From a virus (taxonomy: Duplodnaviria; Heunggongvirae; Uroviricota; Caudoviricetes), in the IMG/VR virus record IMGVR_UViG_2778261256_000009: DNA of 12,617 nt. One strand, given 5' to 3'. The position numbers were made by a program, and so were the translations under genes. The notes under the pieces are model-generated. The model was not told the DNA's origin, did no database searches, and worked only from the letters and a program-made list of their open reading frames with translations. This document shows, in pieces, positions 1 through 12,617 of this stretch; the first letter of the stretch is position 1; each line of letters opens with the position of its first letter.

Positions 1-38
1 CATTTGATCATATGACAAGATGTGTATCTACCTTAACT

Positions 39-62
39 TAATGATTTTGATAAAAATCATTA
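39..62. repeat. Perfect 10-bp inverted repeat TAATGATTTT-gata-AAAATCATTA, just left of where lambda ren-like homology begins
   Basis: Read directly from the sequence: arms at 39-48 and 53-62 are exact reverse complements with a 4-nt spacer. No T-run follows, so it is not an obvious intrinsic terminator. Could be an operator or protein-binding site, or a recombination junction. Confidence 0.35.
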
Positions 63-329
63 GGGGATTCATCAGCGCATAATAGCTTCTGTGCGCCGGA
101 CGTTGCCGCGCTAACAGGCGCAACAGTAACCAGCATAAATCAGGCCGCGGCTAAAATGGCACGGGCAGGTCTTCTGGTTATCGAAGGTAAGGTCTGGCGA
201 ACGGTGTATTACCGGTTTGCTACCAGGGAAGAACGGGAAGGAAAGATGAGCACGAACCTGATTTTTAAGGAGTGTCGCCAGAGTGCCGCGATGAAACGGG
301 TATTGGCGGTATATGGAGTTAAAAGATGA
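54..329 (+). pseudogene. ren: ren-like gene remnant (C-terminal ~90 codons of a lambda Ren homolog, 5' end replaced)
   Basis: The frame ending at TGA 327-329 translates to ...HNSFCAPDVAALTGATVTSINQAAAKMARAGLLVIEGKVWRTVYYRFATREEREGKMSTNLIFKECRQSAAMKRVLAVYGVKR, which matches lambda Ren as I recall it. In-frame stops lie at 39-53 and the first in-frame ATG is at 156, so the native N-terminus is missing. Confidence 0.55.
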
Positions 330-354
330 CCATCTACATTACTGAGCTAATAAC

Positions 355-386
355 AGGCCTGCTGGTAATCGCAGGCCTTTTTATTT
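355..386 (+). terminator. Rho-independent terminator (lambda tR2-like) between ren and ninB
   Basis: 8-bp GC-rich stem AGGCCTGC (355-362) / GCAGGCCT (371-378), 8-nt loop, then TTTTTATTT. Sits immediately upstream of the ninB RBS, as tR2 does in lambda. Confidence 0.7.
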
Positions 387-402
387 GGGGGAGAGGGAAG
401 TC

Positions 403-843
403 ATGAAAAAACTAACCTTTGAAATTCGATCTCCAGCACATCAGCAAAACGCTATTCACGCAGTACAGCAAATCCTTCCAGACCCAACCAAACCAATCGT
501 AGTAACCATTCAGGAACGCAACCGCAGCTTAGACCAAAACAGGAAGCTATGGGCCTGCTTAGGTGACGTCTCTCGTCAGGTTGAATGGCACGGTCGCTGG
601 CTGGATGCAGAAAGCTGGAAGTGTGTGTTTACCGCAGCATTAAAGCAGCAGGATGTTGTTCCTAACCTTGCCGGGAATGGCTTTGTGGTAATAGGCCAGT
701 CAACCAGCAGGATGCGTGTAGGCGAATTTGCGGAGCTATTAGAGCTTATACAGGCATTCGGTACAGAGCGTGGCGTTAAGTGGTCAGACGAAGCGAGACT
801 GGCTCTGGAGTGGAAAGCGAGATGGGGAGATCGGGCTGCATGA
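403..843 (+). CDS. ninB: NinB/Orf-family recombination protein
   Basis: Translation MKKLTFEIRSPAHQQNAIHAVQQILPDPTKPIVV... matches lambda NinB from memory. ATG at 403 follows GGGAGAGGGAAG RBS-like purines; the track ORF 385-843 has an upstream alternative start. Confidence 0.9.
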   Translation: MKKLTFEIRSPAHQQNAIHAVQQILPDPTKPIVVTIQERNRSLDQNRKLWACLGDVSRQVEWHGRWLDAESWKCVFTAALKQQDVVPNLAGNGFVVIGQSTSRMRVGEFAELLELIQAFGTERGVKWSDEARLALEWKARWGDRAA

Positions 844-1367
844 CTATCAAATCAAATACGCCAGCACACGACAAGGACTGCTGGCAAACGCCGCTTTGGC
901 TTTTTGATGCACTGGATATTGAGTTTGGATTCTGGCTGGATTCGGCAGCGAGCGACAAAAATGCTCTGTGTGCTCACTGGCTAACTGAGGCCGACGACGC
1001 GCTCAATTCTGAGTGGGTAAGCCACGGTGCAATCTGGAATAACCCACCGTACAGCAATATCAGGCCGTGGGTGGAAAAAGCTGCTGAGCAGTGCATACAA
1101 CAGCGACAGACGGTAGTTATGCTTGTGCCAGAGGATATGTCAGTCGGATGGTTCAGCAAGGCTCTGGAGAGTGTCGACGAAGTTCGCATTATCACTGATG
1201 GACGGATTAATTTTATCGAACCATCGACAGGGCTGGAGAAGAAGGGAAACAGCAAAGGCTCCATGCTGCTGATTTGGCGACCGTTCATCAGTCCTCGACG
1301 GATGTTTACTACCGTATCCAAAGCGGCATTGATGGCGATCGGGCAGGGCGTCAGGAGGGCGGCATGA
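840..1367 (+). CDS. Phage N6-adenine DNA methyltransferase (Dam-type, NPPY motif)
   Basis: Contains the WNNPPYS catalytic motif (motif IV of N6-adenine methyltransferases). ATG at 840 overlaps the ninB stop (ATGA coupling). Start could instead be 822 or GTG 780. Confidence 0.8.
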
Positions 1368-1540
1368 GGCGACAGCGACGAAGTTTCACCGACATCATCT
1401 GCGAAAACTGCAAATACCTTCCAACGAAACGCTCCAGAAATAAACGCAAGCCAATCCCAAAAGAATCTGACGTAAAAACCTTCAATTACACAGCTCACCT
1501 GTGGGATATCCGGTGGCTAAGATATCGTGCGAGGAAATGA
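1364..1540 (+). CDS. ninE: NinE protein
   Basis: [58 protein letters not shown] closely resembles lambda NinE (recalled). ATG at 1364 overlaps the methylase stop (ATGA). Confidence 0.85.
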
Positions 1541-1884
1541 CAATGGATTATTCACAGTTAAGTGATTTTGAAATTAACAGAATGGTAGGAGACATAATTT
1601 TTAAAGGCCTTTGGGCAAGTAAACCGGAAACATCAGGGAATAACACCAACAAATGGTATTACGGAAATGCTGATACAACTTTTGAGCCATTAAATCATTT
1701 GCCTGACTACTGCAATGATCCGAGCGCTTCATGGCCGATTATTGAGAAATACAGGATTTCTATCTTAGACCAGTTAACTGAATGGTGTGTGGATGCAAAA
1801 GGCGTAAGCCCAATATTTGATACCAGACCTCTCCGCGCCGCCATGATTGTCTTTCTCCTGATGCAGGAGGCCAATAATGCTTAG
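1537..1884 (+). CDS. Hypothetical nin-region protein (DUF2591/NinX-like)
   Basis: 115-codon ORF, translationally coupled on both sides: ATGA overlap with the ninE stop, and its end overlaps the next ATG at 1877. The family assignment is from memory of lambdoid nin regions and is tentative. Confidence 0.6.
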
Positions 1885-2071
1885 CCCATCTCAATCCCTT
1901 CAATACCTGAAAGGAAGCATAGAGCGGGCTTCAATGTGCACAGAGTGGATTCTATCTAGGTTTAGCGCATACAGAAGATTGCCGGTAAAGGGCATGCCAA
2001 GCAAGTCGATGCTGCATATGCAAAAGAATGCGCGCTGGAAGGTATGGCGAGAACACAGGTTATCTGGCTGA
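1877..2071 (+). CDS. NinF-like ORF, possibly chimeric or degenerate
   Basis: The N-terminus [10 protein letters not shown] is identical to lambda NinF as I recall it, but the rest diverges. A second frame is open for only 37 codons at 1981-2094 (TAG at 1978-1980; ...[23 protein letters not shown]) and ends in a GTGA overlap with the rusA start. This suggests a deletion or frameshift scar. Confidence 0.4.
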
Positions 2072-2090
2072 AAGAGGGGGTTATTAAGGC

Positions 2091-2453
2091 GTGAATACCT
2101 ACAGCATCACATTACCCTGGCCTCCGAGCAATAATCGCTATTACCGCCATAATCGCGGGCGCACGCACGTCAGCGCAGAGGGGCAGGCATACCGCGATAA
2201 CGTCGCCCGAATCATTAAAAACGCAATGCTGGATATCGGCCTGACTATGCCTGTGAAAATCCGCATTGAGTGCCACATGCCGGATCGCCGTCGCCGTGAC
2301 CTGGATAATCTGCAAAAAGCCGCTTTTGACGCACTCACTAAAGCAGGTTTCTGGCTGGATGATGCTCAGGTCGTTGATTACCGCGTTGTGAAGATGCCTG
2401 TTACCAAAGGTGGGAGGCTGGAACTGACCATCACCGAAATGGGGAATGAATGA
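2091..2453 (+). CDS. rusA: Holliday junction resolvase RusA (crossover junction endodeoxyribonuclease)
   Basis: [51 protein letters not shown]...[15 protein letters not shown] is near-identical to E. coli prophage RusA (recalled). GTG start at 2091. Confidence 0.9.
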
Positions 2454-2590
2454 TGTTTGAGTTTAATATGGCAGAACTTCTTCGCCACCGCTGGGGGCGT
2501 CTGCGCTTATATCGTTTCCCCGGTTCTGTTTTGACCGATTACCGAATACTGAAGAATTACGCCAAAACACTGACAGGAGCAGGAGTATGA
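2450..2590 (+). CDS. Small 46-codon ORF (YlcG-like) between rusA and Q
   Basis: ATGATG start overlaps the rusA stop; translation [46 protein letters not shown]. Below the ORF-track length cutoff. Position and size match the small ylcG gene of DLP12 (recalled), but the call is uncertain. Confidence 0.45.
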
Positions 2591-2675
2591 AGTCAGAGAT
2601 AACAATCAACTAATACTGTTTTGTTGATTTTTGCTTGTAATTGGCGTTCTGGTCTGAGTTTTGTGGAGTAAGTTG

Positions 2676-3053
2676 ATGCGTGATATTCAGATGGTTCTTG
2701 AGCGTTGGGGAGCGTGGGCGGCTAATAATCATGAAGATGTGACCTGGTCGTCCATTGCCGCCGGTTTTAAGGGATTAATTCCTTCAAAAGTAAAATCTCG
2801 CCCACAATGTTGTGACGATGACGCGATGATCATTTGCGGGTGCATGGCCCGTCTGAAAAAGAACAACAGCGATTTGCATGATTTATTGGTGGACTATTAT
2901 GTCGGCGGCATGACTTTTATGGCGCTTGCACGTAAGCATGGGCGATCTGATTGTTGGGTTGGCAGGATGCTTCAGAAAGCTGAGGGCGTAGTGGAGGGTA
3001 TGCTGATGGTGTTGGATCTCCGATTGGAGATGGATGCTGATTGTTCGAAATAA
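2676..3053 (+). CDS. Q: Late-gene antiterminator Q (QuuD/phage-82-type)
   Basis: [33 protein letters not shown]...[31 protein letters not shown] resembles E. coli prophage QuuD-type Q (recalled). ATG at 2676 follows GGAG; the track ORF starts at an upstream TTG (2661). Confidence 0.85.
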
Positions 3054-3065
3054 TTAAAGGAAAAG

Positions 3066-3094
3066 TTGCTGTCTGATTGTCATTAGTCTAACAT
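3066..3094 (+). promoter_or_regulatory. Candidate late promoter (PR'-like), which would also carry the qut site
   Basis: TTGCTG (3066-3071), a 17-nt spacer, then TAACAT (3089-3094), located just downstream of Q and about 60 nt upstream of a terminator. This is the lambdoid PR'-qut-tR' layout. Hexamers are weak matches to consensus; position-based inference. Confidence 0.25.
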
Positions 3095-3153
3095 TTTAAA
3101 TGTTGGAATCGCAACGTAGTTATTATCATATAACAGCTTGTTTCCTGATTTAG

Positions 3154-3180
3154 CCAGCCTCCCCAAAGGCTGGTCTTTTT
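3154..3180 (+). terminator. Rho-independent terminator (tR'-like, end of the short late leader transcript)
   Basis: Stem CCAGCC (3154-3159) / GGCTGG (3168-3173), loop TCCCCAAA, then TCTTTTT. It also lies 3' of the convergent blc-like gene, so it may work in both directions, weakly on the minus strand. Confidence 0.6.
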
Positions 3181-3208
3181 CTAATAAGTATTATTTCGGG
3201 TAGGGATT

Positions 3209-3733
3209 TTATTGTTTAACCCATAATAATTCATTGACATTGAATCCCAACTTTTGAGCGGTTCGCACATAGTCTGCTTTTACTTTATCTGGAATAGTTG
3301 GGGTCCTTGCCAGAATCCATAGGTATTCTCTGTTCGGACCACTGACAAGAGCATACTTATACTCATCATCCAGTTTGATTACATTATAGCCACCATAGAA
3401 GGGGCCAAAAAACGAAACCTTCAATGCTGCAGTTTTAGTATCTCCAGTAAAGTATGCTTTACCTTCGCTCTCGCTCCATTTATTTTTCGTTGGATCGTAT
3501 CCACGGTTAAGTACACGAATCCCTCCGTCGTTCCGTTTTCCATAAGTAGCGCTGACCTGTTCCAGACCACGTTCGAACCGGTTCTCGAGGCGAGCTATTT
3601 CATACCATTTTCCGAGGTAGCGGTTGGCGTCAAAATTTGTAATCGGCTGCACACCTTTAGGTGGTGTCGGGGCCTTACATGCTATAAGAGTGAAAGAGAG
3701 TGCAATGCCAGTCAACACAGGCCATAACTTCAT
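3209..3733 (-). CDS. blc: Outer-membrane lipocalin lipoprotein, Blc family
   Basis: MKLWPVLTGIALSFTLIAC has a signal peptide and LIAC lipobox. ...NFDANRYLGKWYEIARLENRFERGLE...KVSFFGPFYGGYNVI...YLWILARTP strongly resembles E. coli Blc (recalled). Confidence 0.9.
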   Translation of the reverse strand: MKLWPVLTGIALSFTLIACKAPTPPKGVQPITNFDANRYLGKWYEIARLENRFERGLEQVSATYGKRNDGGIRVLNRGYDPTKNKWSESEGKAYFTGDTKTAALKVSFFGPFYGGYNVIKLDDEYKYALVSGPNREYLWILARTPTIPDKVKADYVRTAQKLGFNVNELLWVKQ

Positions 3734-3925
3734 AATAAATCCTGTACTTTTGATAGTTGAGAGTAAGTATGAAAGATAGATGATTACGACCGATCACTTA
3801 AAGAACTTTCATACTATATTAGGAATAGTCCATAACAGAAAAATTGTCAGTGATGACGCCAGAAAGGCAATTTATTCCGTGCACTACACAGTTTATGTGT
3901 TAATGAATTAGTCAAGGGGGAGAAT

Positions 3926-4885
3926 ATGATAAAAAAACCTGTGATTGGAATCAGCGGTTGTTTGGCCGGTTCTGCTGTTCGTTTTGATGGTGGTCACAAA
4001 AGAGCTGACTTTTTAATGGACAAATTAGTGGAATGGGTAACATTCAGACCAGTATGTCCGGAAATGGCTATAGGGCTGCCAGTTCCGCGTCCTGCTCTAC
4101 GTCTTGTGCGCTCGATGCAAGGAAATATACGGATGTGTTTCAGCCACGACCAGAATGAGGATGTGACAGAGAGAATGACAGAGTTTAGTCGTTCTTATAT
4201 GGACAAATTAAAGGATGTATCGGGGTTTGTGGTTTGTGCTAAATCTCCCAGCTGTGGCATGGAGCGCGTGCGTGTCTATGATGAAAATGGTAATCGAGGT
4301 CGTAAAGATGGAGTGGGACTATTTACGAGCACTTTGATGGAAAAGTTTTCCTGGCTACCGGTTGAAGAGGATGGGCGATTACATGATCCAGTGCTTCGTG
4401 AGAATTTTGTTGAAAGAGTTTTTGCTTTGCATGAGCTCAATCACCTTTACAAGGAGAAATTATCAAGAAGAGAGTTATTAGCTTTTCATAGTCGTTATAA
4501 GCTTCAGTTGTTGGCGCATAGTCAGGCAGGCTATAAAGATATGGGACCATTTGTGGCTGCAATACACGAGTGGGCGGACCTTGAATCATACTTTGAGGTG
4601 TATCGTGATAAGCTGATGGCGATTCTCAGAAAACCTGCATCACGTAAAAATCACACGAATGTGTTGATGCATATACAGGGGTATTTTAGTAACTACTTAA
4701 GTACACGCCAGCGTAAAGAGTTGAGCGAGGTTATACTTAACTATCGTTCTGGCACATTACCTCTTCTTGCGCCGTTGACTCTGCTGAAGCATTATCTGGG
4801 TGAGTATCCTAATGATTACTTGCTTACACAGAATTACTTCGATCCCTATCCGGACGAACTGGCTCTAAGACTGACGGTAAATTAA
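3926..4885 (+). CDS. DUF523 (TudS-like) + DUF1722 fusion protein, YbgA/RudS-like putative [4Fe-4S] thiouracil/4-thiouridine desulfidase
   Basis: N-terminal MIKKPVIGISGCLAGSAVRFDGGHK..RPVCPEM..VVCAKSPSCGME has Cys at approximately residues 12, 44, 104 and 110, consistent with the Cys ligands of TudS-family desulfidases. The C-terminal half resembles DUF1722 (YbgA-like). RBS AAGGGGGAG precedes the ATG. Family assignment is from memory. Confidence 0.7.
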   Translation: MIKKPVIGISGCLAGSAVRFDGGHKRADFLMDKLVEWVTFRPVCPEMAIGLPVPRPALRLVRSMQGNIRMCFSHDQNEDVTERMTEFSRSYMDKLKDVSGFVVCAKSPSCGMERVRVYDENGNRGRKDGVGLFTSTLMEKFSWLPVEEDGRLHDPVLRENFVERVFALHELNHLYKEKLSRRELLAFHSRYKLQLLAHSQAGYKDMGPFVAAIHEWADLESYFEVYRDKLMAILRKPASRKNHTNVLMHIQGYFSNYLSTRQRKELSEVILNYRSGTLPLLAPLTLLKHYLGEYPNDYLLTQNYFDPYPDELALRLTVN

Positions 4886-5227
4886 TTGTATGCGATATCA
4901 TCCAAAAGGATGAGTTCCTGCATGCAGGATATTTACAATCGTAAAAACTACACTATGATACCCAGAGTGTCAGTTTGTATAAAAACTCTGTTTACGCTGA
5001 AGAAACAATTGAGATGCAACTTAAAGTTGGTAAACATGCCAGTCAAAATATATAATATTATGATTCCACGCAGCTATATATAATATAACAGATTGGTTTA
5101 ATAATTTGTCTTTGTGAGTTAAATACATAATTTTATACTTGTGATGCAATGAAATTTTCCTTATTGTTGAACTGGCGAATATTGATTTTCCACCTATACT
5201 TACCTGGTGTAACCCCAATGATATCAG

Positions 5228-5968
5228 GTGGATAATATGCCATACATATGTTCTATCATTTTGGTGTTGAACTCGTTTGATGTCCGAATTGGTAAAGAAG
5301 ATATTTTGTTTAAAAAAGGAAGTGCTGTTCTCATTGATTACAATTTAAAAGATTTTTTTTCATCAAATATAGATCATGTAATGATCGTAGATGTTGAAGA
5401 GAAAACAGTTAATGATTTCTTTAAAAGCAACACACTCTCACCTTTTTCTGTAAGAAGGTTTTATCCGGCATACTTGATGGTGGAATGTGAAGATTTTTCA
5501 TTGTTAAAGAACTTGATTGCATGCTTGAATTGTGATGGCAGAACTGTGGATTTTGTTAGAAATCAAATATCACTTGCATGTCTTGCTATCTTATCTTCAG
5601 AGAAAATAGTGCAAAGTTTTTTATTTGGATGTCTTAATAGTTTAGGAAGTAAAGTTAAGGCTATTATTCACACGGATATATCTGCAGCATGGAGACTTTG
5701 TGATATATCTTCAAGACTGTATCTGAGTGAAAGTCTGTTAAAAAGAAAATTAAAGCACGAAGGCTTATCATTTAGTAAGTTAATTCTTGAAGAGCGAATG
5801 GTGATGGCGGAAAGGTTATTAAGCTACAATTTATATTCTGTTGGAAAAGTTGCTGAGATATGCGGTTATGAAAACACGTCATATTTTGTAAGTGTTTTCA
5901 GAAGGTATTTTGGTGTTCCTCCCCATCAATATTCATCAAGATTTTTTTTAGAAAAAGACATGATGTAA
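5228..5968 (+). CDS. AraC/XylS-family transcriptional regulator (C-terminal HTH), AT-rich
   Basis: The C-terminal region ...LYLSESLLKRKLKHEGLSFSKLILEERMVMAERLLSYNLYSVGKVAEICGYENTSYFVSVFRRYFGVPPHQY is a typical AraC-type double HTH. The gene and its 340-bp upstream region are markedly AT-rich. Start may be ATG 5228 or ATG 5237, which follows AGGTGG. Confidence 0.8.
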   Translation: MDNMPYICSIILVLNSFDVRIGKEDILFKKGSAVLIDYNLKDFFSSNIDHVMIVDVEEKTVNDFFKSNTLSPFSVRRFYPAYLMVECEDFSLLKNLIACLNCDGRTVDFVRNQISLACLAILSSEKIVQSFLFGCLNSLGSKVKAIIHTDISAAWRLCDISSRLYLSESLLKRKLKHEGLSFSKLILEERMVMAERLLSYNLYSVGKVAEICGYENTSYFVSVFRRYFGVPPHQYSSRFFLEKDMM

Positions 5969-6029
5969 CGTGATGCGTTTTAATGATTTTGTAATTTTCG
6001 TATTTGATAATTGTATGATGCTTTCAGCT

Positions 6030-6060
6030 ACGCCAGAATAATCGCGGCGTTTTTCTTTTT
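6030..6060 (+). terminator. Candidate intrinsic terminator downstream of the AraC-family gene
   Basis: Short stem ACGCC (6030-6034) / GGCGT (6046-6050) followed by TTTTTCTTTTT (6051-6060). The stem is weak, so confidence is modest. Confidence 0.35.
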
Positions 6061-6155
6061 GAATAGATGTTCAAGCCTTACGCTAATGTAACTTCTATAC
6101 CTTTCCTCTTCGTTCCGAACCGTGTACACCATCCGTTATTTGCGGAGGTGAGGCT

Positions 6156-6371
6156 ATGAAATCCATGGATAAGTTAACAACGGGTGTCGCCTATGGCACC
6201 TCAGCAGGTAGTGCCGGTTACTGGTTTTTACAGCTGCTCGATAAAGTCACGCCCTCACAGTGGGCAGCAATAGGTGTGCTGGGTAGCCTGGTATTTGGCC
6301 TGCTGACGTACCTGACAAACCTTTATTTCAAGATTAAAGAAGATAAGCGCAAGGCTGCGAGAGGTGAATAA
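6156..6371 (+). CDS. S: Class II holin / pinholin (phage 21 S-like), with dual-start motif
   Basis: 71 aa, [71 protein letters not shown]. Two Met codons (M1 and M4) fit the antiholin/holin dual start. Two hydrophobic segments; resembles S21/EssD (recalled). RBS GGAGGTGAGG. Confidence 0.9.
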
Positions 6372-6868
6372 TGCCTCCATCATTACGAAAAGCCGTTGCT
6401 GCTGCTATTGGTGGCGGAGCAATTGCTATAGCATCAGTGTTAATCACTGGCCCAAGTGGTAACGATGGTCTGGAAGGTGTCAGCTACATACCATACAAAG
6501 ATATCGTTGGCGTATGGACTGTATGTCACGGGCATACAGGAAAAGACATCATTCCCGGTAAAACGTATACCGAAGCAGAATGCAAAGCCCTCCTGAATAA
6601 AGACCTTGCCACGGTAGCCAGACAAATTAACCCGTACATCAAAGTCGATATACCGGAAACAACGCGCGGCGCTCTTTACTCGTTCGTCTATAACGTGGGC
6701 GCAGGCAATTTCAGAACATCTACTCTTCTTCGCAAAATAAACCAGGGCGATATCAAGGGCGCATGTGACCAGCTACGTCGCTGGGCATACGCTGGCGGTA
6801 AGCAATGGAAAGGCCTGATGACTCGTCGTGAGATTGAGCGTGAGGTCTGTTTGTGGGGGCAACAATGA
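6371..6868 (+). CDS. R: SAR endolysin (T4-lysozyme-like muramidase, R21-type)
   Basis: N-terminal Gly/Ala-rich weakly hydrophobic segment [20 protein letters not shown] (signal-anchor-release domain), then [25 protein letters not shown] carrying the E-x8-D-x5-T catalytic triad. Start overlaps the holin stop. Confidence 0.9.
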
Positions 6869-7329
6869 GCAGGGTAACCGCGATTATCTCCGCTCTGGTT
6901 ATCTGCATCGTCGTCTGCCTGTCATGGGGTGTTAATCATTACCGTGATAACGCCATCGCCTACAAAGAACAGCGCGACAAAAATGCCAGAGAACTGAAGC
7001 TGGCGAACGCGGCAATTACTGACATGCAGATGCGTCAGCGTGATGTTGCTGCGCTCGATGCAAAATACACGAAGGAGTTAGCTGATGCGAAAGCTGAAAA
7101 TGATGTTCTGCGTGATGATGTTGCCGCTGGTCGTCGTCGGTTGCACATCAAAGCAGTCTGTCAGTCAGTGCGTGAAGCCACCACCGCCTCCGGCGTGGAT
7201 AATGCAGCCTCCCCCCGACTGGCAGACACCGCTGAACGGGATTATTTCACCCTCCGGGAACGACTGGTAATGATGCAGGCCCAACTTGAAGGTGCTCAGC
7301 AATACATAACCGAGCAGTGTTTAAAGTAA
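6865..7329 (+). CDS. Rz: Rz i-spanin
   Basis: ATG at 6865 overlaps the endolysin stop (ATGA). N-terminal TM segment [21 protein letters not shown] followed by a charged, coiled-coil-like periplasmic domain. Resembles lambda Rz. Confidence 0.85.
7085..7270 (+). CDS. Rz1: Rz1 o-spanin lipoprotein, embedded in the +1 frame of Rz
   Basis: [53 protein letters not shown] has a lipobox (VVGC) and a proline-rich mature region. Lies wholly inside Rz in another frame, the classic spanin arrangement. Confidence 0.8.
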
Positions 7330-7466
7330 AATCTTAACTACAATATGATTCATTTTGATGATTGTTTCATAAGGAACAGTGAAGTAAGATCTAAGAGGAG
7401 TTAAATTTTATACAGTATAATCATAATATTGCAGCAAGGTGGTTATAATTGAAAGAATATTTAGAT

Positions 7467-8924
7467 ATGAATACATCTCATGTAAGAGTTGTTACTCATA
7501 TGTGTGGGTTCCTGGTTTGGCTCTATAGTCTTTCAATGTTGCCACCAATGGTTGTAGCATTGTTTTATAAAGAAAAAAGCCTGTTCGTTTTCTTTATAAC
7601 TTTCGTTATATTTTTTTGCATTGGTGGCGGAGCGTGGTATACAACTAAGAAATCTGGCATTCAATTACGTACCCGTGATGGGTTTATTATAATTGTAATG
7701 TTTTGGATTTTGTTTTCTGTTATTAGTGCATTCCCTTTATGGATTGACTCAGAACTTAATTTAACGTTCATTGATGCTCTGTTTGAAGGGGTTTCTGGAA
7801 TAACAACAACAGGAGCAACTGTAATTGATGATGTTAGTTCATTACCTCGGGCATATTTGTACTATCGGTCACAGTTAAATTTTATAGGTGGTTTAGGAGT
7901 TATTGTTCTGGCGGTTGCTGTATTGCCATTATTGGGTATTGGTGGTGCAAAGCTTTATCAGTCAGAAATGCCGGGGCCATTTAAGGATGACAAACTCACT
8001 CCCCGCCTGGCCGATACGTCACGGACACTGTGGATAACTTATTCTTTATTAGGTATTGCTTGTATTGTCTGTTATAGACTTGCAGGAATGCCTTTGTTTG
8101 ATGCTATTTGTCACGGGATTTCCACAGTTTCGCTTGGTGGTTTCTCAACTCATAGCGAGAGTATCGGATATTTTAATAACTATTTGGTTGAGCTGGTGGC
8201 TGGTTCTTTTTCCCTGCTATCGGCTTTCAACTTCACTCTTTGGTATATTGTTATTAGCAGGAAAACGATAAAACCTTTAATCAGAGATATTGAACTTCGT
8301 TTCTTTCTGTTAATAGCCTTAGGGGTGATCATTGTTACCTCTTTCCAGGTCTGGCATATAGGTATGTATGACTTGCATGGAAGTTTTATTCATTCGTTTT
8401 TTCTTGCCAGCTCCATGCTCACTGATAATGGTTTAGCTACGCAGGATTATGCAAGTTGGCCCACGCACACGATAGTGTTTTTGCTGTTGTCAAGTTTCTT
8501 TGGGGGATGTATAGGTTCAACTTGTGGTGGAATTAAGTCACTTCGATTTCTTATACTTTTCAAACAAAGCAAACACGAGATAAATCAGCTTTCTCATCCC
8601 AGAGCGTTGTTGAGTGTAAATGTAGGAGGGAAGATAGTTACAGATCGTGTAATGAGGTCTGTATGGAGTTTCTTTTTTCTTTATACTCTCTTCACGGTGT
8701 TTTTTATACTGGTGTTAAATGGTATGGGATATGATTTTCTTACATCATTTGCAACAGTGGCTGCATGTATTAATAATATGGGATTAGGTTTTGGGGCTAC
8801 TGCATCGTCATTCGGAGTGCTTAATGACATTGCAAAATGTTTAATGTGCATAGCTATGATTCTTGGTCGCCTTGAAATTTATCCTGTTATTATATTGTTT
8901 TCAGGTTTTTTTTGGCGCTCCTAA
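7467..8924 (+). CDS. trkG: TrkH/TrkG-family potassium uptake transporter (Rac-prophage TrkG-like)
   Basis: 485-aa polytopic membrane protein from ATG 7467, MNTSHVRVVTHMCGFLVWLYSL..., with several glycine-containing selectivity-filter-like P-loops (e.g. GVSGITTTGATV, GISTVSLGGFS, ACINNMGLGFG). AT-rich. Matches E. coli K-12 TrkG as recalled. The track ORF starts at an upstream TTG (7449). Confidence 0.9.
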   Translation: MNTSHVRVVTHMCGFLVWLYSLSMLPPMVVALFYKEKSLFVFFITFVIFFCIGGGAWYTTKKSGIQLRTRDGFIIIVMFWILFSVISAFPLWIDSELNLTFIDALFEGVSGITTTGATVIDDVSSLPRAYLYYRSQLNFIGGLGVIVLAVAVLPLLGIGGAKLYQSEMPGPFKDDKLTPRLADTSRTLWITYSLLGIACIVCYRLAGMPLFDAICHGISTVSLGGFSTHSESIGYFNNYLVELVAGSFSLLSAFNFTLWYIVISRKTIKPLIRDIELRFFLLIALGVIIVTSFQVWHIGMYDLHGSFIHSFFLASSMLTDNGLATQDYASWPTHTIVFLLLSSFFGGCIGSTCGGIKSLRFLILFKQSKHEINQLSHPRALLSVNVGGKIVTDRVMRSVWSFFFLYTLFTVFFILVLNGMGYDFLTSFATVAACINNMGLGFGATASSFGVLNDIAKCLMCIAMILGRLEIYPVIILFSGFFWRS

Positions 8925-9061
8925 TATATGGCTGATTTATAATTGTGAGTTTAATATTATGTTGACTCACTCATTGATCCAATACCTAACTTTACCAGCA
9001 ACCCCTCCGTCCCCAGTAGCACTGGCTGCTGGGGTGCGTTTTATTCATAAAGCAAGGCTGT

Positions 9062-9853
9062 ATGAGCGAGAAATTAAAGATAGTCTATCGCCCATTACAA
9101 GAATTGTCACCGTATGCGCACAACGCCAGGACGCACAGCCCTGAGCAGGTGGCACAACTGGTAGAAAGTATTAAGCAATTCGGCTGGACTAATCCGGTGC
9201 TGATTGACGAAAAGGGCGAAATTATTGCGGGTCACGGTCGTGTTATGGCGGCTGAAATGCTCAAAATGGATTCTGTTCCGGTCATTGTTCTGTCTGGCCT
9301 GACGGATGAGCAGAAAAAGGCGTACCGCCTGGCAGATAATCGCCTGCCGATGAATGCTGGCTGGGATGAAGATCTGTTGCGGATGGAGCTGTCGGACCTA
9401 ATCAATGCTGATTTTGATGTCTCCCTGACAGGCTTCATCCCGACAGAAATTGATGAACTGTTGACGGATGTTTTGCCCGGTACAGGAAATGAGGAGGAGC
9501 CGTATACGACGAAAATTGATACGCCTGTTTATGAGCCGTCGGGCGGTAAACCGGATATCAGTGAACTGTACGACGATACGAAAACTCAGGAGCTGATCAG
9601 CCGGATACGTTCGGCGTCCCTTGAGCCTGATATTGAGAAATTCCTCCTGTGTGCGGCAGAACGTCACACGGTGTTTAATTTCAGCAGAATTGCGGACTAT
9701 TACGCTCACGCCCCCTCTGAAATTCAGTGTTTTTTCGAGGAGTCGGCGCTGGTGATCATTGATTATCAGCAGGCTATTGAAAATGGATTTGTCCGGATGA
9801 CGCAGCGCATGGTGGAGATCATGCATGGTGGTGAGGAGGAGGAATATGCGTGA
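9062..9853 (+). CDS. ParB N-terminal-domain (ParB/Srx-like nuclease domain) protein, YnaK-like
   Basis: The N-terminus LKIVYRPLQELSPYAHNARTHSPEQVAQLVESIKQFGWTNPVLIDEKGEIIAGHGRVMAAEML shows the ParB-N fold signature, including a GxxR box. C-terminus is acidic. Occupies the position after trkG that ynaK holds in Rac (recalled). Confidence 0.75.
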   Translation: MSEKLKIVYRPLQELSPYAHNARTHSPEQVAQLVESIKQFGWTNPVLIDEKGEIIAGHGRVMAAEMLKMDSVPVIVLSGLTDEQKKAYRLADNRLPMNAGWDEDLLRMELSDLINADFDVSLTGFIPTEIDELLTDVLPGTGNEEEPYTTKIDTPVYEPSGGKPDISELYDDTKTQELISRIRSASLEPDIEKFLLCAAERHTVFNFSRIADYYAHAPSEIQCFFEESALVIIDYQQAIENGFVRMTQRMVEIMHGGEEEEYA

Positions 9854-10778
9854 TGATTTTTGCGCCTTTATTCTGACTCACGGGCGACCGGACAAAGTTC
9901 TGACTTACCGGACGTTGCGTCGTGCTGGCTATACCGGGAAAATTTTTATCGTTGTTGATGATGAAGATAAGACACGGAATCAGTACATGGCTGAATTTGG
10001 TGAACAGGTGCTGGTGTTTTCCAAAGCCGATATCGCCAGTCGTTTTGACGAAGCCGATAATTTCTGTGACCGCCGCTCAATTTTTTACGCCCGTAATGCC
10101 TGTTTCGACCTGGCAAAACTGGTCGGGTGTAAATACTTCATTCAGCTCGATGATGATTATCACGAGTTCCAGTTTCGGGTGGATCGCAACTATGACCAGG
10201 CCTATTTTCCGATAAGGAAACTGGATGCGATCCTTTCTGAAATGCTGGCGTACTACGAATCAATACCTGCTCTTTCCATCGCTATGTCGCAGGGCGGGGA
10301 TTTTCTTGGTGACAATGGCGGCCATGCTTCGTGGGTGAAACGCAAGGCAATGAACAGCTTTATCTGTTCGGTTGATCGACCGTTCTCATTCATGGGGCGC
10401 ATTAACGAGGATGTGAATACGTACACGAATCTCGGTCGCTGTGGTGAATTGTTTATGACGATCGGTGCTGTCCAGTTAGGGCAGAAACAGACGCAGAAAA
10501 ACAGCGGCGGAATGACCGAGCTGTATCTGGATTCCGGAACCTACGTTAAAAGTTTTTACTCCGTCATGTATGCGCCGTCGTGCGTAAAAATCTCACTGAT
10601 GGGTGCCAGCCATAAACGCATTCACCATCAGGTCACCTGGAACAACGCTGCAGTAAAAATCCTTCACGAAAAATACAGGAAGAAGACACCCTGCATATCA
10701 ATGGGGGTGACAAATGATTCCGTATTCGAAAGTCGAGTCTCTGGCAGCGTGCCGGATGACTGCACAACAAATCGCTGA
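9846..10778 (+). CDS. Uncharacterised protein with a GT-A-fold-like motif pattern (possible nucleotide-sugar transferase); function unknown
   Basis: ATG at 9846 follows a strong GAGGAGGAGG RBS and overlaps the ParB-like stop by 8 nt. The pattern FILTHGRPDKV .. IFIVVDDEDK .. YFIQLDDDYH resembles the beta1 / DD / DxD layout of GT-A glycosyltransferases. This is a motif-level inference only. Confidence 0.55.
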   Translation: MRDDFCAFILTHGRPDKVLTYRTLRRAGYTGKIFIVVDDEDKTRNQYMAEFGEQVLVFSKADIASRFDEADNFCDRRSIFYARNACFDLAKLVGCKYFIQLDDDYHEFQFRVDRNYDQAYFPIRKLDAILSEMLAYYESIPALSIAMSQGGDFLGDNGGHASWVKRKAMNSFICSVDRPFSFMGRINEDVNTYTNLGRCGELFMTIGAVQLGQKQTQKNSGGMTELYLDSGTYVKSFYSVMYAPSCVKISLMGASHKRIHHQVTWNNAAVKILHEKYRKKTPCISMGVTNDSVFESRVSGSVPDDCTTNR

Positions 10779-10965
10779 CGTTCTGGATGTTGATCTGAAC
10801 CGACTGAAAGAAAATCGGGAAGCAATGACAGATTTTTATGCGGCCATCCGTAAGGGCAGAGCGAAAGGTGAAGCCGAGTTACGAGCGGCATTGTTTAAGC
10901 TTGCCAGAAAAGGGGATGCCTTTGCTCTGCGCGAACTACTCAGGGTGGATAAAAATCAGGACTAA
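10756..10965 (+). CDS. Small putative HTH protein immediately upstream of, and in frame with, the terminase small subunit
   Basis: MTAQQIADVLDVDLNRLKENREAMTDFYAAIRKGRAKGEAELRAALFKLARKGDAFALRELL is HTH-like. A single TAA (10963-10965) separates it from the ATG at 10969 in the same frame. Start is ambiguous (10714 or 10756) and overlaps the upstream gene. Confidence 0.4.
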   Translation: MTAQQIADVLDVDLNRLKENREAMTDFYAAIRKGRAKGEAELRAALFKLARKGDAFALRELLRVDKNQD

Positions 10966-10968
10966 CTG

Positions 10969-12063
10969 ATGAGCAGACCGGACTGGGGGGCGTTGCAGCA
11001 GGAGTATATTGCTGAATACACCCGCTCCGGTATATCTCCGGTGGCATGGTGTGAAGCAAGGGGACTGAATTACGCAACAGCCCGTCGTTACATCAAAAAA
11101 ACTCCGAAAAATGCGCAGACAGAAATGTGCAAAACTGCGCAAAAAAGTGCGCAGAAAAAATCTGCGCAGACTGCACAAAAGCGGAACGAAAAATCTCAGG
11201 AAAAAAAGCCAGTATTCGATGCGGGCCTGAATGAGGGCGACGCGGAGGAATTTTCGTTCTGTCCCGATGAATTCGGCATTTCTGACCAGCAGGCTAAGTT
11301 TGCGATGCTTGTTGCTCAGGGTAAAAAGCCGACAGAGGCGTACCGACTAGCCGGTTATGAGGGGCAAGGTGCGACAGCTAACAGCAACGCCAGTCGTATG
11401 CTTAGAAATGCCAGGGTTTTTCGCGCTATCAGCTACTTCCGCAATCAGTACCAGAAACGCTATACCGCAGACCTGGATTTACTAGTGAGTCAGTTGATGG
11501 CTATTGCCCTGGCCGACCCCAATCAGCTTGCACAATTTCGCCGTGTTAACTGCCGTTATTGCTGGGGCGAGAATCATCTCTACCAGTGGCGCGATATAGC
11601 AGAATTCGACAAGGCAGCGGCGCAGGCTTCCAGAGATGGCAAACCCGAACCGGAATATGGAGGCCTCGGCTTTGTTGATAACGCCATACCCAATCCGGAC
11701 TGCCCGAAGTGCTGCGGTGAGGGAACGGGACAGCTTTATATGGCTGATACCACTCTGCTTGATGGGGATGCGCGGCAATTATATGCAGGGGCAAAATTCG
11801 GAAAATTCGGCGTTGAGATCCTGCTGGAGGATAAGGCTGCCGCCCGGCGTGAATTGTTGCGTTTGTTTTCTGCTGGCGGGGCTTTATGTGCAGATAAACG
11901 GCTACAGGAACTGGAAATTGAACGGCGCAGAATGGAAAACCAGAAGCTGCGCAAAGAGATCGAAACGGTGGAAGATAATGAACATCCCCAGCCTGTGGCG
12001 ATCAATATTAATGTGGTTGATGCCAGAGTAAGGAGTGATGAAGATGATCTCTCCGACGCTTAA
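10969..12063 (+). CDS. Terminase small subunit (Terminase_2-like domain) with a low-complexity AQK-rich linker
   Basis: The segment QQAKFAMLVAQGKKPTEAYRLAGYEGQGATANSNASRMLRNARVFRAISYF matches the conserved core of phage terminase small subunits as I know it. Lies immediately upstream of, and overlapping, a Walker-A-containing terminase large subunit. Confidence 0.7.
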   Translation: MSRPDWGALQQEYIAEYTRSGISPVAWCEARGLNYATARRYIKKTPKNAQTEMCKTAQKSAQKKSAQTAQKRNEKSQEKKPVFDAGLNEGDAEEFSFCPDEFGISDQQAKFAMLVAQGKKPTEAYRLAGYEGQGATANSNASRMLRNARVFRAISYFRNQYQKRYTADLDLLVSQLMAIALADPNQLAQFRRVNCRYCWGENHLYQWRDIAEFDKAAAQASRDGKPEPEYGGLGFVDNAIPNPDCPKCCGEGTGQLYMADTTLLDGDARQLYAGAKFGKFGVEILLEDKAAARRELLRLFSAGGALCADKRLQELEIERRRMENQKLRKEIETVEDNEHPQPVAININVVDARVRSDEDDLSDA

Positions 12064-12547
12064 TGTGCCTCAGGCGCGATTTCTTTCAATGCCCCATAAA
12101 TTTAAAGCCTATATTGCTGGTTTTGGCTCGGGCAAAACATGGGTTGGGTGTGGCGGCATATGCAAGGGGATTTGGGAGCATCCAGGTATAAATCAGGGAT
12201 ATTTTGCGCCAACGTATCCCCAAATTCGCGATATTTTTTACCCTACAGTGGAAGAAGTTGCTGCTGACTGGGGATTGAACGTAAAAATTAATGAGGGAAA
12301 TAAAGAGGTTCACTTTTATTACGGACGCCAGTATCGGGGAACCACTATCTGCAGATCGATGGAGAAGCCACAAACGATCGTCGGTTTCAAAATTGGTAAT
12401 GCGTTGGTGGATGAACTGGACATTTTGCCGAAGGAAAAAGCCAGAACGGCGTGGCGCAAGATAATTGCACGTATGCGTTATAAGATTGATGGACTTCGCA
12501 ACGGTATTGACGTTACAACCACGCCGGAAGGATTCAAATTTGGGTGA
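12044..12547 (+). pseudogene. Terminase large subunit, N-terminal ATPase fragment truncated by an IS1 insertion
   Basis: Walker A motif AGFGSGKTW near the N-terminus. The ORF ends at a TGA (12545-12547) supplied by the first bases of the IS1 terminal repeat, so only about 167-170 codons remain; a full TerL would be about 450-600 aa. Start is 12035, 12038 or 12044; 12044 has the best RBS spacing (AGGAG at 12031-12035). Confidence 0.8.
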
Positions 12548-12617
12548 TGCTGCCAACTTACTGATTTAGTGTATGATGGTGTTTTTGAGGTGCTCCAGTG
12601 GCTTCTGTTTCTATCAG
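12543..12617 (+). mobile_element. insA: IS1 left end (terminal inverted repeat plus start of insA), continuing beyond the window
   Basis: GGTGATGCTGCCAACTTACTGATTTAGTGTATGATGGTGTTTTTGAGGTGCTCCAGTGGCTTCTGTTTCTATCAG matches the IS1 end and insA start (GTG at 12598, VASVSI...) as I recall it. Only 75 bp are in the window. Confidence 0.85.

Follow-up and report, generated by a model that had tools for sequence, protein, structure and literature searches.

A ninF–ybcO joint upstream of rusA in an Escherichia coli lambdoid prophage and a recurrent deletion end point within it

Lambdoid relatives and the layout of the window

The mosaicism of lambdoid phages reportedly takes the form of novel joints (Juhala et al. 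2000, J Mol Biol), and lambda nin5 is known from the classical lambda literature as a deletion of the nin region. The locus studied here resembles both in the abrupt transition between unrelated modules, in its probable origin by illegitimate recombination, in its location in a dispensable region and in flanking genes that appear functional. However, the novel joints of lambdoid phages fall at gene boundaries, whereas the joint described here lies within two genes and leaves recognisable stumps of both. Three groups of phages were found to be close to it. In P22, ninF begins inside the end of ninX with an overlap of 8 nt and is followed downstream by ninG; its product matches PF05810 at residues 20–44 (E = 2e-13), where the Cys-rich, zinc-ribbon-like core (CxxC...CxxCC) is located. 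In phages of the DLP12 or phage 82 type, such as Escherichia phage PhiR34_1, the gene ybcO (DUF1364), which encodes a His-Me finger nuclease, precedes rusA. The full YbcO domain has about 92 residues, with an N-terminal Cys cluster and a CHDEID stretch, which we take to hold the catalytic and zinc-binding residues of the His-Me finger. The third group consists of the Stx1 phages SH2026Stx1 and AU6Stx1.

The window, i.e., the whole stretch of 12,617 nucleotides that was analysed (IMG/VR record IMGVR_UViG_2778261256_000009), was found to be part of a lambdoid prophage in the E. coli chromosome. The gene order was a truncated ren, ninB, an N6-adenine methyltransferase gene, ninE, ninX, the joint region, rusA, ylcG, and Q, followed 3′ of Q by moron genes (lipocalin, ybgA-like, AraC-like), the lysis genes essD-rrrD-rzpD, trkG and the terminase genes. 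At least 80% of the window was covered in 25 complete E. coli genomes; among the matches listed, no E. coli alignment began before base 76, and the best was 100% identical. The coordinates of the features are given in Table 1.

The three moron genes form a block between Q and the lysis cassette (3209–5968), and in other relatives this position is occupied by a porin gene (nmpC/ompD-like). Strain 2018-18.25PC (NZ_AP023286.1) contained a sequence 100% identical to window positions 76–12617, and in the same prophage a composite transposon, ISApl1-mcr-1-pap2-ISApl1, was found inside the AraC-like moron gene at approximately window position 5300. The potassium transporter gene trkG lies between the lysis and the terminase genes, the position it also has in the Rac prophage of K-12; a ParB/Srx-like gene follows it.

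Table 1. Features of the window, with positions counted from its first nucleotide.
Feature	Position	Strand	Remarks
IS10-like element (ISVsa5), outer end	1–75	−	inserted into ren
ren without its first 37 nt	76–329	+	window 76 aligns to nt 38 of the ren of phage ev207 (291 nt)
ninX (DUF2591)	1543–1884	+	intact; Pfam PF10765, E = 7e-17; called NinX family protein by PGAP in relatives
Segment A, ninF codons 1–21	1877–1939	+	5′ fragment in its original frame, by DNA and protein comparison with P22
Chimeric 64-codon ORF and TGA	1877–2071	+	ninF codons 1–21, segment B in frame, ybcO out of frame
Segment B, 65-nt orphan filler	1940–2004		matches neither the ninF nor the ybcO partner
Recurrent right-hand end of leftward prophage deletions	1984–1989		retained DNA starts at T1986 (TAAAGGGCATGCC...)
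Segment C, ybcO 3′ fragment	2005–2094	+	last 29 codons and TGA; pseudogene remnant
CGATG, 5-nt microhomology at the B/ybcO joint	2007–2011		common to the window, the SH2026Stx1-type continuation and ybcO
Shine-Dalgarno-like GAGGGGG	2074–2080	+	10 nt upstream of the rusA GTG, within the retained ybcO tail
rusA, Holliday-junction resolvase	2091–2453	+	intact; Pfam PF05866, E = 2.6e-23; annotated rusA in relatives
Lipocalin gene (moron)	3209–3733	−	
YbgA-like DUF523+DUF1722 gene (moron)	3926–4885		
AraC-like regulator gene (moron)	5228–5968		
trkG	7449–8924		
ParB/Srx-like gene	9062–9853		

Three segments between ninX and rusA

The open reading frame starting at 1877 had been described in the earlier note as beginning like NinF and then diverging, and this was confirmed. 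Residues 1–22 were 73% identical to P22 NinF (16/22), with no similarity beyond. At the DNA level, the window was 92% identical to the ninX-ninF stretch of P22 from 1800 to 1939, where the homology stopped after the first 21 ninF codons (segment A). The ATG at 1877 overlaps the ninX stop codon (TAG 1882–1884) by 8 nt, as in P22. The conserved N-terminus and the position over the end of ninX are thus those of a NinF gene, but the Cys-rich core and the downstream ninG of P22 were both absent, and the 64-residue product gave no Pfam match at E ≤ 1.

The second frame, at the 3′ end, belongs to ybcO. The ninF-like fragment had been suspected to be fused, with a change of frame, to the 3′ end of a small Cys-rich gene upstream of rusA, and ybcO was found to be that gene. 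From position 2005 onwards the window was 99.3% identical to the ybcO-rusA sequence of PhiR34_1 and 99–100% identical to ybcO of the DLP12 type, the likeness (99%) continuing through the ybcO tail, the GTGA overlap, rusA, ylcG, and Q. The final 29 residues of the frame were all identical to residues 68–96 of YbcO (29/29). The frame stops at TGA 2092–2094, overlapping the GTG start codon of rusA (2091–2093), and stands directly upstream of rusA-ylcG-Q in the manner of ybcO. The proposal that this GTGA overlap is a remnant of the original gene arrangement was likewise upheld, as the tail matches ybcO and PhiR34_1 contains an intact ybcO-rusA pair with the same overlap. The full YbcO domain was not found in the window. 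PhiR34_1 and DLP12 contain ybcO codons 1–67, including the CHDEID stretch, whereas the window contains the ninF stump and the filler in their place; the remaining frame was devoid of a start codon, and its match to PF07102 was limited to profile positions 62–92 (18.2 bits against a cut-off of 29.9). In the RefSeq E. coli records inspected, PGAP called only 2005–2094, as 'DUF1364 domain-containing protein, incomplete, missing N-terminus'. Two details given earlier for this frame had to be corrected. The upstream stop codon is TAG 1963–1965 and not a TAG at 1978–1980, where the bases are ATT, and the frame is open for 42 codons (1966–2091) instead of 37 (1981–2094); the homology to YbcO proper begins at 2005 and not at 1981.

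A third segment, B, which had been overlooked, lies between the ninF and the ybcO pieces. Its sole other homologue was an unannotated sequence in the Stx1 phages SH2026Stx1 and AU6Stx1, 87% identical over 1911–2011, and the copy of B itself in Stx1-type prophages was 91% identical. In the Stx1-type arrangement (SH2026Stx1, 2477–2640 of the fetched locus L004), B follows ninF codons 10–21 and is followed by unrelated DNA of a different moron region. The likeness to the window thus covers ninF codons 10–21 and B, up to window position 2011, at 87–91% identity; unlike the window, this ninE-proximal stretch of the Stx1 phages contains neither ninF codons 1–9 nor the ybcO tail. The Stx1-type arrangement was present in 249 mostly EHEC-type E. 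coli genomes and was unannotated in all of the matches listed. There, the ninF stump with B adjoins a leftward moron gene of 590 aa.

No annotation of B was found among the matches listed for 835 E. coli genomes. Searches for an intact source gene in phages and E. coli gave only the two known contexts, both unannotated, and a strict B pattern, searched in 185,579 species representatives (GTDB, one genome per species), was found on a single E. coli contig only. B was also considered as a diverged or frameshifted remainder of ninF, ninG, ybcO, or ninE, and the idea was rejected as the alignments, on both strands, were no better than those of shuffled sequences. A NinF Cys motif noticed by eye in frame 2 of B was dropped; the nucleotide alignment stays in frame 1 until similarity is lost. 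B was invariant across 584 genomes, and among 85 copies of the ORF it was again invariant, whereas the flanking segments A and C were polymorphic. The invariant centre with variable flanks fits variation imported through recombination with ninF and ybcO alleles; a constrained cis-acting site in B is another possible reason. At the right-hand joint the homology to SH2026Stx1 runs to 2011 and that to ybcO begins at 2005, and the two overlap at the 5-nt microhomology.

Distribution and origin of the joint

The complete joint of the three segments was found in 584 of 5,426 complete E. coli genomes, with an identity of at least 98.6% in the seven full-length matches listed and of 98–100% overall. 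About 2,900 further complete E. coli genomes matched from position 2005 only, i.e., they contain an intact ybcO-rusA. The joint was also present in at least 27 phage genome records at 98–99.5% identity, including ev207, ev017, mEp332, and PhiR11_1; the records of mEp332 and PhiR11_1 give E. coli K-12 MG1655 as host. The same joint in so many genomes and phage records does not bear out the mosaic decay of the early region that the earlier note had suggested for this prophage; the scar has been inherited as a mosaic joint and allows phages to grow. The truncated ren, which had been taken as a further sign of decay, was found to have another cause. It is truncated because an IS10-like element (ISVsa5) was inserted after nucleotide 37 of ren: window positions 1–75 were 100% identical to a repeat present in 1,803 genomes, where it adjoins an ISVsa5 transposase gene, and ren was intact in the closest relatives, 81EVA and 2018-18.25PC. 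The truncation is therefore a strain-specific insertion at 75/76, unrelated to the scar.

The region 1877–2094 is best explained as a fossil joint left by illegitimate recombination between two lambdoid nin-region modules, a reading to which we give a probability of about 85%. A left module of the P22 type (ninE-ninX-ninF) would have been spliced to a right module of the DLP12 or phage 82 type (ybcO-rusA-ylcG-Q). The ninF/B joint is probably the older of the two joints, since both of the B-bearing arrangements contain it, and it would have been formed first, in an older ancestor that this lineage and the Stx1 phages have in common. B would then have been joined to the last 29 codons of ybcO at the microhomology CGATG, and we infer from this order that two or more illegitimate events followed one another in the making of the scar. 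Both genes are destroyed, NinF having lost its Cys-rich zinc-ribbon core and YbcO its residues 1–67 with the CHDEID stretch. As the ybcO tail survived, rusA kept its native ribosome-binding site and GTG start codon, which plausibly explains why the scar is tolerated. With this start retained, rusA, ylcG, and Q would stay expressible and the phage viable, which would account for the spread of the joint among E. coli prophages and free phages, both by clonal descent and through recombination.

Two other explanations of the change of frame were weighed against the fossil joint. A sequencing or assembly error in an intact ninF or ybcO would account for the abrupt frame change taken alone, but hundreds of finished genomes and phages, each sequenced independently, contain an identical or nearly identical sequence, and the pieces differ by their origin and not by an indel; the probability of such an error is close to nil. 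The ORF might instead be a genuine, selected gene, either as a new variant of NinF or as a frame kept open for the delivery of ribosomes to the rusA start, by translational coupling or by protection from polarity. The ORF still starts at the ninF ATG, overlapping ninX by 8 nt, was open in 83 of 85 copies, occurs in viable phages, ends 19 nt before the rusA GTG, beside the ribosome-binding site, and is called 'protein ninF' in viral RefSeq records. However, rusA has a separate ribosome-binding site, ybcO sequence in the wrong frame accounts for one third of the product, and frameshift and truncation variants of the ORF are known. The 85 copies (23 haplotypes) differed by approximately 14 nonsynonymous and 5–6 synonymous substitutions, a roughly neutral ratio, and the lack of stop codons does not reach significance, as only about 19 sites are variable. 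Neither purifying selection nor conservation beyond near-identical copies was found for the ORF, and we consider a selected gene very improbable.

Comparison with other proteins gave the same picture of the ORF. No family was matched in Pfam and NCBIfam, and the 21 C-terminal residues were the tails of frameshifted ybcO genes (P0017–P0020). Among 5.8 billion protein clusters all named relatives were from E. coli, and many of them formed small clusters with frameshifts, truncations, or read-through. PGAP did not annotate the ORF in the sampled RefSeq E. coli records. The label 'protein ninF', under which some viral RefSeq and GenBank records list it, is wrong, since the 64-aa product contains no NinF domain, which is a lesson for annotation. 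The earlier note had held that the ORF would be a genuine gene if intact relatives encoded the same 64-aa protein. Such relatives do exist, so that the expectation is literally borne out, but the ORF is not rescued as a gene by them, because there is no NinF domain, the ybcO tail is out of frame and the substitutions are in the ratio given above. Judged from its sequence, the 64-codon ORF is most likely not a functional gene. It appears to be an accidental read-through of three pieces, which may be translated, as the ninF start and the ninX overlap are kept, and nothing suggests that its product matters.

An RNA element in the scar was also considered and rejected, as the fold was no better than that of shuffled sequences (z = +1.8) and there was neither an Rfam match nor a terminator. 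No Rfam family was found in the window, and no promoter-like or terminator-like site was found in 1877–2094.

The scar, read as a fossil joint, is ordinary lambdoid mosaicism, already annotated by RefSeq as a DUF1364 pseudogene fragment. Taken alone it is of little importance; it follows the textbook account of lambdoid mosaicism.

A recurrent deletion end at T1986

The sequence that begins at T1986 (TAAAGGGCATGCCAAGCAAG, followed by the tail of ybcO and by rusA) was found joined to many different left-hand sequences. The joints were located with a ybcO-frame peptide search and with DNA anchors, the left flank of the site being GCATACAGAAGATTGCCGG. At least ten independent leftward deletions were found to end at T1986 at the DNA level, and five more were known as fusion proteins only. 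The left-hand partners were lambda-type P at codon 47 (L008), 434-type cro at codon 61 (L009 and L010), 434-type cro at codon 54 in a finished genome, HKUOPY1 (L140), another cro at codon 19 (L011), the interior of N (L013), the ral-proximal region (L079), two positions in an Ead-region block (L012 and L026), a position upstream of xis (L014), and the lambda int-xis-ea region (L016). The fusion proteins were joined at codon 33 of P, at codon 6 of the methyltransferase gene, and at three other positions. The left ends therefore range from near int to the methyltransferase gene of the nin region.

All joints were colinear with the lambdoid map, which makes them deletions towards the left; their sizes range from 2 kb to more than 10 kb. 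Over approximately 950 nt, 1 to 40 mismatches separated the right-hand modules from the window, which marks the deletions as independent. Intact left parents were found among the fetched loci for all ten of the DNA-level joints. A terminal microhomology of TA, TAA, GTA, or GGTA was present at the break in nine of the ten; the tenth was blunt, its right part beginning exactly at T1986. In E. coli HKUOPY1 (L140, 2400–2669), residues 1–54 of the 434-type Cro were fused in frame to the YbcO tail, and the chimera of 89 aa was annotated by RefSeq as a helix-turn-helix protein.

In a scan anchored on the left flank, none of 81 loci contained an altered right side, and no deletion variants were found at the Stx1-type B allele (0/37 loci). 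The T1986 variants were present in only about 5 of 589 complete genomes and thus represent rare, sporadic events. Most of them were found by right-anchored searches, in which rightward deletions are under-sampled, and the unbiased sample was small, with 3 of 83 IMG/VR loci and one finished genome. Right-hand deletion ends formed another, less tight cluster at 1806–1820, inside ninX (L021, L025, L054); in L025, codon 33 of P was joined to window position 1814 through TA, at the same CAGGTA site as in the fusion protein P0011.

Two trivial sources of the joints were set aside. A transposon or MITE at T1986 was rejected, as the window contained no inverted copy of either flank and the IS elements of related strains were found elsewhere, inserted in ybgA and in the lysis region. 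Assembly artefacts are unlikely, as the joints were seen in NCBI, ENA, Logan, and IMG assemblies as well as in a finished genome; in L008 an upstream run of N was a scaffold artefact, and the P/1986 joint lay in contiguous sequence. Searches for an IS element, an inverted repeat, an RNA family, or a terminator at T1986 found none of these.

A fixed end with variable leftward ends and terminal microhomology would be the pattern expected of a site-specific nick or a one-ended break, and a site-specific nick is our leading guess for the cause of the T1986 deletions. The region may accordingly hold a cis-acting site, where a nick or break made specifically at G1985/T1986 would create a hot spot for one-sided deletions; this would add to the explanation of the scar as a fossil joint and would not replace it. 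The ten DNA-level and five protein-level deletions with the same right end, their microhomologies and their independence are in its favour, as are the left-anchored loci and the Stx1-type loci without variants. The bias of the right-anchored searches, the small unbiased sample and the second cluster in ninX, by which other end points are known to occur, are against it, and we regard such a site as possible but unlikely.

The nick might be made by the YbcO of a second, ybcO+ prophage resident in the same cell, attacking the allele that lacks ybcO in the way of a homing endonuclease. YbcO, whose structure has been solved (3g27), is placed among the His-Me finger nucleases, and T1986 sits 19 nt away from where the sequences with and without ybcO diverge. 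However, the literature on YbcO gives no biochemical function and nothing beyond this structural classification, and two of the seven sampled matches with the complete joint had a second query match, which could be a ybcO+ copy. That the 19 nt of 1986–2004 mark a top-strand, site-specific nick or break at G1985/T1986, made by a YbcO-family nuclease of a co-resident ybcO+ lambdoid phage, is a good deal more doubtful than the cis-acting site itself, and the homing-endonuclease-like attack on the ybcO-less allele is an attractive thought but speculation. If it occurred, failed repair of the break at 1985/1986 would lead to recurrent one-sided deletions, by which inducible prophages would become harmless remnants.

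The recurrent end at T1986, shared across immunity types and lineages, would be unexpected to a specialist in phage or genome evolution, and it is the only part of the scar that deserves further work. If the deletions are caused by a sequence-specific nick, this would hint at an activity, either of the still uncharacterised YbcO nucleases or of some other enzyme. If the nick is made by YbcO, the family would gain a function, and a defined mechanism of prophage domestication in E. coli would be at hand. In either case, a sequence-specific nick would provide a concrete way for the immunity and replication regions of lambdoid prophages to be lost.
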